The position numbers are program-made. Below, piece after piece: positions 33,001-36,000 of a stretch of 52,671 nt of DNA. Numbering within the stretch: position 1 is the first letter of the stretch; the number at the start of each line of letters is the position of its first letter. Source of the DNA: a bacterium. GTDB taxonomy: Bacteria > Eisenbacteria > RBG-16-71-46. The stretch lies in assembly GCA_043779265.1 (NCBI GenBank), contig JAYWEM010000179.1:1-52671 (forward strand), read 5' to 3'.

Positions 33001-36000
33001 CCGGCGAGCAGTTCCCCGCCCGCCTCACGGTGGGCGTTCGGAAGTTCCGAGAACGTCGCATACGCGAAGGTCACACGCCCCCCGAACGGTGCGAGGCGCT
33101 GCCGTGAGAAAGCGAGCGCCTCGAGATCGCGGTCGCAGGCGAGCAGGCGGACCTCGGGATCGGCCGAGAGCAGCGCGAACGCATGCCCCCCGTCGCCGAG
33201 AGTCGCATCGAGATGGAGTCCTCCCCCAGGCTGCACGAACGCGAGCGTCTCGCGGACCAGCACGGGCTCATGACGCGCACTCATTCGTGGACTCGTGGGT
33301 CGCGGTGGGACTGGTCCACAGCTCCTCGACCGAGGGCCAGCAGCGAAGCTGCGGCTCACAACCGGCGAGGCGCAGGAGATCACGCAGATAGTGTGAGAGG
33401 CCGCACAGCACCGTCGCGCCGGCGCGCGCCTCGAACTGCACCAGTGAGCCGACGAGCCTTGGAACCAGGCGGTAGTCGACGTGGCGCAGCTGGCTGCAAT
33501 CGACCACGAGCTGGGAGACGCCACGCGCCGCGATCTCGGCCAGGGTCTCCTCGATGCGCCGCTCGGCCGACAGATCGATCCAACCGCGCAGCGCGAGCAC
33601 GGCGACGCGCCCCTGCGGACGGTCATGCCACTCGATGCGGCCGGAGGCCCCGTGACGGCCGCGCGTGAATTGGAGATTCACGGCCGTCTGCGGCGATCCT
33701 CTGTCGGGAAGCGAGACCATCACCCGAGTCCCCCCAGGACTTCCTCTCCAAGTGCATCGAGGTCTGCCTGCGCGGGCTCGACCGCTTCACGGAAGCGATC
33801 CGGCGCCCACAACTCGATGCGTCCGACTTGGCCGTGCAGGACGGCTTCCTTGCCGAGACCTGCACGGCTCATCAGTGGCGGCGGAATGGTGATCCGTCCT
33901 TGGGCGTCCACCGCCACTTTGCTGGCTCCGACGAGGAAGGCTCTCGCGAACTGACGCTCCTTTGCGCGACCGGTCGAGAGTTTGCGAAGGCGTTCCTCGA
34001 AATGCACCCAGTCCTCGTCCGCATAGAGCCAGAGACAGCCATCGAGCCCACCGACGAGAACGAACTGCGTGAGAGGTTGCTTGCGACCTGGCACTTTGCG
34101 ACTCGATGCGGGGATGACGATGCGTCCCTTGTCGTCGATCGAGTAGGTGTTGGTGCCGTAGAAGGTCGCCATGCGTTTTCCTGGGGCTGGGCCGGTTCGA
34201 CATTTTCTCCCCGGAACCCCCATTTCCTCCCACAAGCCGCAATGTAGACCGGGGCTTCGGGAGAGTCAATCGTTTTTCATCGCATCGTGCGATGGGGCCT
34301 CGACTTGCACGGGTGTGCAGGGAGACCGGGGGACGATTCGCGGCGCTTCGCAGGGGCCTTCAGTCGGCCCCGGTCGCCAGGTGCCTTCGGATCGAGTCGG
34401 CGACGACCCAGTCGATCCGGTAGATCGTGTAGACCGCGGCGCCAGGGCGCGCGATGCCGAGATTGGGAAGCGAGGCGTGGCCGACCGGCGTGAGCGCCGG
34501 TGCGAACGGACTGCGATCCAGCAGATCGAATGGGCGAGGCGCTCGGTCCATCAGCACCTCGGGGCGCGCGACCTTGGCGAACTCGAACTGCGCGACGGCA
34601 TCCTCCTGCGGCATGCGCGCGAGGATCGGGACCATCCCGGGAGTGACGAGCCCCGCGAGGTCGAGCACTCGCCGCTCGCTGAAGTAGCCGACCGCGCCGA
34701 TATCCGGCGCGGCGACCACGGCGTCGCGAGCGGTGTTCTCCCGGAACCACTTCCCCCACGGGATCAGGCTGGCTCGCATGCCGGCACTGAGCGAGTCCAC
34801 CTGGGGCACGACCTTCTGCTGGTGGACGAGCAGATTGGGCACGACGCTCAACAGCATGAGCCCGAGACCGAGCAGCGCGGCTCCGCGCCGGTCCTCGCGA
34901 CGCGGCGCATTGCCGCTCCACCACCGCTCGACCGCCCACCACGAGAGCCAGGCGAGGATCGGCATGATCGGCAGCAGGTAGCGCGAGAGCACCGGCACAC
35001 CGCGCATCGTGTAGAGCAGGGGCAGCGCCGCCACCCACACCCAGGGCAGCAGGCGCTGCGCCTGCCATTGCCCACGGCCCGGCCACACACGTGCGCCCGC
35101 GAACACGAGTGCCGCCACGAGGGCACCCGCCAATGCCGCATCGGTGGCGCCGACGATCTGCGCCTGACGCATCAGCTGCTCGGCGATGTAGTCCCAACCC
35201 TCCCCGCCCGCCACCTTCGCGGCGAGTGTGTTGGGCCAGAACGAGCCGAACGTGAGCCGCGCATAGAGCAACCAGCCGCCGTAGATGATCGCCGGCGGCA
35301 GCGCTCCGAACAGCAGCCGTCGGATGCCGGCTCGCGAGTCCGTGTCGATGATGAGGAAGATCCCCCACAGGACGAGCAGGAACACCGCCTCGGGCCGGGT
35401 CAGCGCCGCGAGTGCCCAGAGCGCGCCGGTCCGCACCGGTCGCGACCCCCATTGCTTGCCCTCGGTGAATGCGACGAACCCCGCGAGCACGAGCGCCACT
35501 GCCAGCGGTGTCTCCATCCCGGAGACCGACCAGCGCGACATCCACGCGTGGCTCGCCCACGTGACGACACCGAACGCGCGCAGCTCGGGCATGCGCAGAT
35601 CGCGCCGCAGCAACTGCAGGAAGAGGATCACCGACCAGATCGTCGCGATCGCGCCGAGGCCCTTGGCGACCATCAGGCCGTCCAGTCCGAGAGCGATACC
35701 ATCGGCGATCAGCGCCACCCACAGCGGACTCGTGCTGCCGTACACGTTCTCGCCCGGGTTGAACACGAAGCCGTTGCCGGCGGCGAGGTTCTTGGCGTAC
35801 TGCAGGTGGATGTACGTGTCGTCGGTGATGTAGCCGCGCAGCGGCCACATCAGCGCCACCACCAGCAAGAGGGCGATCGCGAGCCCGAACTTCTCGATTC
35901 GGGTGAGCGGTCCGTTCTCGGTCAGGATCACGACTTCTCCTTGGGAGTCCTCGTCGACAGCGTGGAGTCGAGCACCTCGGCGAAACGCTCGGCGAGTCGT

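Follow-up and report, generated by a model that had tools for sequence, protein, structure and literature searches.

The window, by which we mean the whole stretch of 52,671 nucleotides analysed here, carries on its minus strand a complete dcw cluster that runs from mraZ through ftsZ as judged by Pfam matches. The mraZ gene (33720..34172, start at 34172) matches PF02381 with an E-value of 7e-28 and TIGR00242 above its cut-off. Downstream on the same strand lie mraW/rsmH (32367..33284; PF01795, E 2.4e-70; start picked by eye), a probable ftsL (31939..32370) assigned from its position and one hydrophobic helix and having no Pfam or NCBIfam match, and the remaining dcw genes identified by Pfam, namely ftsI, two Mur ligases, mraY, murD, ftsW, murG, murC, ftsQ, ftsA and ftsZ (17330..31908). 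The cluster is presumably co-transcribed from the mraZ promoter. Between mraZ and mraW sits a STAS-domain gene resembling anti-sigma antagonists (33268..33723, minus strand; PF01740, E 6.5e-11) that overlaps the mraZ stop. Families and genera are given here as codes, with f1 the family of the window, f2 its sister family and the other f and g labels used likewise; homologues of the STAS-domain gene were present in the f1, f3, f7 and f9 mraZ loci checked.

The region 33900-34700 contains one sigma-70-type promoter, TTGACT-17-TACATT at 34269-34241 (shuffled sequences gave a mean of 0.0), with its -35 hexamer at 34264..34269 and its -10 hexamer at 34241..34246, both on the minus strand and found by promoter scan. 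An A-tract just upstream of the -35 (34273..34277, minus strand; a T-tract in most relatives) may be UP-element-like. On the downstream side four MraZ-type repeats (GTGG, ATGG, CGGG and ATGT; 34200..34233, minus strand) with a 10-bp period cover the presumed transcription start. Their motif matches the MraZ motif given in PMC12957436 and bioRxiv 10.1101/2022.02.09.479790, and two or more NTGG repeats are found in 54/54 f1 mraZ loci. In the three f3 loci (L171-L173) GTGGGG repeats fall within the presumed -35/-10 spacer of mraZ and not past the -10.

Upstream of this promoter, at 34306-34319, lies the exact palindrome TGCACGGGTGTGCA (TGCAC-N4-GTGCA), the sole exact match within the window. It ends 36 bp before the -35, and its centre is at about -78.5 if transcription starts 7 nt past the -10. 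A preliminary description of this DNA had placed the palindrome here, upstream of the mraZ -35 and with the MraZ repeats separate from it and downstream, and on both points our results agree, the repeats being at 34233-34200. We annotate 34306..34319, with no strand assigned, as a predicted LexA operator from its exact match, its conservation in the family and the occurrence of the same motif at lexA. On the far side of the box a membrane glycosyltransferase-like gene (34360..36063, minus strand; weak NCBIfam matches below cut-off) runs on the same strand as mraZ and has its stop 40 bp before the box; the same gene is found upstream across f1.

The genome has a single match each for PF01726 and PF00717, and its LexA (TIGR00498 above cut-off) is a protein of 199 residues in which alignment to solved LexA places the Ala-Gly site, the Ser and the Lys. 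We surveyed 71 lexA loci, of which 70 were readable. The box, with at most one mismatch, precedes 43/43 lexA genes whose product has a STNGxR recognition helix (40 of them exactly) and 0/27 of those with other recognition helices. The STNGxR proteins form one side of a tree branch with support 98/95, and a pattern search found the Ala-Gly site and Ser/Lys dyad in 42/43. At lexA the box starts 2-3 bp past the -35 in 42/42 scored loci and is directly followed by a -10-like hexamer in 34/40. Fifteen further lexA loci included six second copies with STNGV[QACE] and no box, and two genes with STN[SG][VI]R that have the box. The palindrome had been called the LexA operator beforehand, and its tracking of the STNGxR helix together with its place between the -35 and -10 of lexA bears this out. 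The mraZ palindrome is thus almost certainly a LexA operator, and LexA very probably binds it.

In those lexA genes of the phylum that encode an SPATV helix another element, CGAAC-N4-GTTCG, lies between -35 and -10; we take it to be the Gram-positive SOS box. It shares the 5-4-5 geometry and the lexA position with the palindrome described here and differs in its half-site and in the clade of its LexA. A further comparison is with the LexA box of Fibrobacter succinogenes, which Mazon et al. in 2004 are said to have defined as TGCNC-N4-GTGCA. In that form it would have the same palindrome and spacer, and the TGCTC and TGCCC variants that occur among our surveyed loci would fit it. If this is right, the motif itself is not new, and what is added here is confined to its range and to mraZ as a target. 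Our literature search for TGCNC-N4-GTGCA found no text with the motif.

Exact copies of TGCAC-N4-GTGCA number five in the genome where 3.8 are expected, and all are intergenic: at lexA, at two DUF6504-like/dinB cassettes, at a DinB-family gene and at mraZ. The eight sites, six of them non-coding, counted in the preliminary description are reached only when GTGTA is permitted in the right arm. Enrichment of the motif over the genome was rejected, and since the count is near chance the evidence lies in where the sites are and in their conservation. The further claim of a box in the lexA, recA and dinB-cassette promoters stands with exact copies for lexA and both cassettes; recA of this genome has a one-mismatch copy, the right arm of which merges with the -10 TAGTAT. 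Similarly among 12 f1 recA loci none is exact, seven have one mismatch, four have two and one sequence is cut short, the right arm being mostly fused to the -10. No recA box was found in f7 (0/13 loci). A matrix trained on the lexA and recA boxes of other genomes ranks recA, lexA and both cassettes at the top in this genome, and the mraZ site of the window tenth of 29 matches at 15.0 bits. Regulon boxes lie over the promoters of recA-recX, the dinB/dnaE2 cassettes, the DinB-family gene and Rv2578c-like radical SAM genes. The targets inspected comprise repair and mutagenesis genes, an IS200-like gene and an 84-aa protein, and no membrane-type division inhibitor was seen among them. SulA (PF03846) was likewise found in 0/61 family genomes, the control being positive only in E. 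coli; of the earlier statement that SulA and YneA have no match, the part on SulA is hereby confirmed, inhibitors of the YneA, SidA and ChiZ types not having been covered by a family search.

An exact box stands before mraZ in 59/59 f1 loci (54/54 distinct loci and 5/5 fetched later as a check) from 28 labelled genera, after nine duplicate loci and one contig starting inside the box were dropped from the set. This extends the 16 of 16 loci reported previously. Near-matches further upstream of mraZ amount to a background of 3 in 144,898 bp, or 0.008 per 400 bp. In f2, leaving out one unpublished genome, six of nine mraZ loci have an exact box, two have one mismatch and one has no box at that level; a one-mismatch box is also present in 2/3 f14 genomes. 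No box was found before mraZ in f3 (0/3), f7 (0/24) or f9 (0/4) although the LexA type is the same, and in f4 a query with the MraZ protein of the window returned no MraZ from 6/6 genomes. To speak of an Eisenbacteria regulon including mraZ, as had been done, is therefore too wide.

A tree of MraZ with 115 rows requires two changes of the box label and is compatible with a single origin, which the test did not reject (p-AU 0.92). One gain thus explains the distribution, so that the loci are not independent and record a single event. The mraZ box so appears to reflect one recruitment followed by strong selection, and in one branch of the Eisenbacteria to be a genuine LexA site, strongly conserved where dcw begins. 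A metagenome scan for the box followed within 25-52 bp by a promoter gave at least 119 stretches. Among the matches listed 23 precede mraZ, all with proteins closest to f1 and gaps of 32-44 bp. At least 21 matches have a 32-bp gap, and those shown belong to another lineage (L230, L235, L242, L256, L258 and others) with DnaA-box-like repeats upstream of a promoter, a conserved non-coding leader and varied downstream genes. Four members of this group tested against Rfam gave no match.

It is very unlikely in our estimate that the mraZ palindrome is not LexA's at all and instead serves a different regulator that shares the motif, or forms a hairpin or terminator in RNA. The mraZ boxes do score somewhat lower than those of lexA and recA on the lexA/recA matrix (median 21 vs 24, with the window at the value given above) and prefer different outer flanks, and a second PF01726 match occurs in many family genomes. 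Against such a reading, every family in which we saw the exact mraZ box has the same box at lexA, and its ten core bases are invariant and do not covary in 51/51 loci while the outer flanks vary freely. A T-run follows the stem in only 6/57 loci and the region folds modestly (z -1.9), and on these grounds together with the invariant core a terminator or RNA hairpin was rejected. A DnaA-box origin of the palindrome was rejected too, given the C/G-rich flanks and a G after TGCAC in 35/51.

The gap between box and -35 in f1 ranges from 21 to 51 bp with peaks at 33, 36-37 and 42-44 bp. It had been described as forming two groups of 34-37 and 42-48 bp, yet only 40/59 f1 loci fall in these, and the other 19 gaps are 21, 31, 32, 33 (ten loci), 38, 38, 40, 40, 41 and 51 bp. 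Phasing on a 10.5-bp period gave R 0.35 and p ~0.0015 when computed per locus, where kin loci are not independent, and R 0.26 and p ~0.15 when computed per genus (28 genera). With genera as the unit the phasing is thus not significant, and a phasing of two groups is not supported. Genus g74 alone contains both 37-bp and 43-bp gaps, and f2 loci show gaps of 32, 40, 70 and up to ~96 bp. With +1 assumed, the operator centres lie between -63.5 and -93.5 in 56/59 loci of f1 and f2, three being further out.

The promoter itself has a -35 of TTGAC in 45/54 f1, 24/24 f7 and 20/33 other loci, and a -10 of TAnnnT, spaced 17-18 bp from it in the 54 loci with a box that were scored. Two A/T tracts precede the -35 at distances of ~4-7 and 24-28 bp. 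They are anchored on the -35 and not on the box (sd 3.0 vs 5.4 bp in 39 loci), and A/T tracts occupy this zone also in the f7 and f9 loci, which lack the box. Behind the mraZ box a -10-like hexamer occurs in 4/65 rows on the sense strand and in none on the opposite strand, and we rejected on these counts a hidden promoter overlapping the box on either strand. Unlike at lexA, a -10 thus seldom follows the box at mraZ, so that LexA cannot block the core promoter there in the usual way. Inverted MraZ-like repeats stand 40-110 bp upstream of the -35 in 20/24 f7 mraZ promoters (L005-L034), with a long A-tract between them, and could possibly form an MraZ repression loop; within the zone of the box such repeats occur in these 20/24 f7 loci versus 6/54 in f1.

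LexA might also bind without acting on the mraZ promoter, by blocking read-through, by controlling a second or divergent promoter, or with little effect of any kind. Across f1 the glycosyltransferase-like gene, on the same strand, has its end a short way ahead of the box, we found no minus-strand terminator in the window, and LexA binding with no apparent regulation is reported (PMC3381160). In the sister genus g29, as measured by eye, ~63-96 bp separate the box from the -35 of mraZ, and three loci have it only 14-19 bp from a divergent -35. The neighbouring gene, however, is co-directional in f1 and divergent in 4/5 f2 loci, which retain the box and so weaken a pure read-through block. Moreover the distance from the upstream stop to the box varies from 0 to >300 bp while that from the box to the -35 stays at 21-51 bp, no -10 follows on the opposite strand in the 65 rows, and an exact box in 59/59 loci argues against a neutral site. 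We hold a lack of action on mraZ to be improbable, though less so than a site foreign to LexA. In the g29 loci (L091, L170 and L429) the LexA box is separated from a weak -35 by a second, imperfect palindrome (GTGTC...GACAC) with a long A-tract on either side.

The reading we favour, to which we give an even chance, is that LexA supports dcw transcription and that its cleavage lowers it, which would make a checkpoint that has no need of SulA. The single, cleavable LexA of the genome would bind the palindrome and would repress lexA, recA and the dinB cassettes, where its site overlaps the core promoter. At mraZ it would sit wholly upstream, beyond the A/T tracts fixed to the -35, and in growing cells could aid RNA polymerase through the alpha subunit tail or the shape of the upstream DNA. 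DNA damage would then remove LexA by RecA-triggered cleavage, dcw transcription would drop while MraZ autorepression continued, and unstable division proteins such as FtsL would run down so that division pauses. We favour a positive role because the core is not occluded, because cells would hardly keep an essential operon off during growth only to release it on damage, because SulA was not found in the 61 genomes, and because the targets inspected are limited to the repair and mutagenesis genes, the IS200-like gene and the 84-aa protein. Known SOS division checkpoints lower division after damage and do not raise it. Sequence comparison carries the predicted operator identity, the apparently intact cleavage machinery and the conserved distal position; LexA binding, the positive sign, the operon-wide effect and the division arrest we infer from these.

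That the site occupies an activator position, as the preliminary description had it, holds insofar as the box is wholly upstream of the core promoter; the claim of activation is weakened by phasing that is not significant per genus (p ~0.15), a -35 near consensus and A/T tracts of the promoter's own. With respect to class I activation the site is placed as expected, upstream of ~-60 and clear of the core, but the core promoter is not weak, having TTGAC in most f1 loci as well as the A/T tracts. The TTGAC -35 is indeed no weaker than in unboxed lineages, so that an activator is not obviously needed, and loose spacing and a strong promoter count against activation. A CRP site moved to the opposite face of the helix no longer activates, even where an UP element is present, and an UP element relaxes the spacing over only ~5 bp (PMC4132738).

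A rival reading is a dampening of the mraZ promoter from upstream, in which LexA competes with the alpha tails for the A/T tracts or loops with MraZ, and damage raises transcription, restocking division proteins for recovery or raising MraZ. All other sites of this regulon are ones at which LexA represses, the near-consensus promoter has two A/T tracts anchored on its -35, and loose spacing fits steric or looping effects. The inverted repeats of box-less f7 in the same zone give a hint of loops, and the dcw region of E. coli is described as LexA-repressed at three SOS boxes (PMC3265435). Yet 21-51 bp lie between the end of the box and the -35, which puts the box past both tracts in most loci, and MraZ autorepression would cap a surge. 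Inducing a division operon during damage also goes against the usual direction of an SOS checkpoint. We therefore see dampening by LexA as possible but rather unlikely.

A stronger form of the positive role would make LexA the required activator of the whole dcw operon, such that cleavage alone stops division with no inhibitor protein. We put it forward only tentatively, as falling somewhat short of an even chance. In that case CGAAC-type boxes before mraZ would mark repeated recruitment by different LexA types. Near-copies of CGAAC-N4-GTTCG, which we noticed after the fact, do lie upstream of mraZ in 3/20 loci of families with a CGAAC-box lexA (L353, L098 and L367 of genomes G101, G091 and G011), scoring 18.9, 17.1 and 14.2 bits, while 0/100 control windows reached 12 bits or more. 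By family they are found in 2/6 f8 loci, 1/1 f6 locus and 0/13 elsewhere, and recA lacked a CGAAC box in 12/12 loci of such families. Convergent recruitment of the mraZ promoter by different LexA types may be read from this as suggestive only.

From a functional point of view the site suggests that DNA damage acts directly on the division genes, either down or up. The canonical LexA/RecA SOS regulon resembles the one described here in its cleavable LexA, its autoregulation and its boxes over repair-gene promoters; it differs in that the regulon here is small, that no SulA was found and that the dcw box is far upstream of the core. To our knowledge known division inhibitors are clade-specific, and we know of no account of how most phyla halt division after damage. 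An operator unchanged at the head of dcw over 28 genera would be a concrete test case for a checkpoint acting by transcription only, and the system bears on the ability of a plain LexA of 199 residues to activate from an upstream site. For part of the Eisenbacteria, an uncultured group, it further provides an SOS box and a core regulon.

Such ideas are not unprecedented, given the whiB2, E. coli dcw and gut mraZ sites. LexA of M. tuberculosis binds and activates whiB2, which is needed for division and whose expression falls after damage in a RecA-dependent manner (PMC3381160). That case shares with ours a LexA site at a division gene; its target is one regulator gene, the site has one mismatch and a dedicated inhibitor, Rv2719c, exists alongside, unlike the head of the dcw operon here, where the sign of the effect is predicted only. 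The three SOS boxes of E. coli (PMC3265435) and, in gut Firmicutes, a site upstream of an mraZ homologue, to which B. subtilis LexA bound in vitro (PMC3998124), similarly lie in the 5' dcw region. They differ in that repression or no sign is given and that no clade-wide conserved distal site is described in the available text of either source. In B. subtilis division stops, by way of FtsL, when the mra operon is shut off, and a proposal cited in the same source (10.1101/2022.02.09.479790) has DnaA control this operon on replication arrest. There as here transcriptional shut-down of mraZ-mraW-ftsL-pbpB would halt division; the regulator there is DnaA, whereas here the link would be LexA cleavage. 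The mraZ mRNA of C. glutamicum goes down after ciprofloxacin, with no LexA link given there (PMC5055667), and positive LexA targets are described for Streptomyces (PMC9380542 and PMC11157053). In literature searches that largely left subscription journals aside we found no paper on LexA in Eisenbacteria and no report of this arrangement of LexA and mraZ.

Several further observations concern the regulon itself. At L209:2907-2932 (G000 C165) a strong one-mismatch box is followed by TATGAT with no clear downstream gene on that strand and no Rfam match, and possibly controls a small RNA or peptide through LexA; the Rfam search of six loci gave no match. An IS200/Y1-transposase-like gene with a near-box of its own lies directly 3' of lexA in two genera (L208:2378-2897 of G000 C36; L219 and L220) and is possibly a domesticated nuclease within the SOS regulon. 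At the head of the dinB cassettes stands the 84-aa DUF6504-like protein, of which there are two subtypes (L211, L212, L225, L410, L415, L416 and L422). Finally, recA matches are split at profile positions 194-198 in open reading frames of 580-817 aa in G001, G004, G005, G008, G032 and G038, in an intein-like manner.
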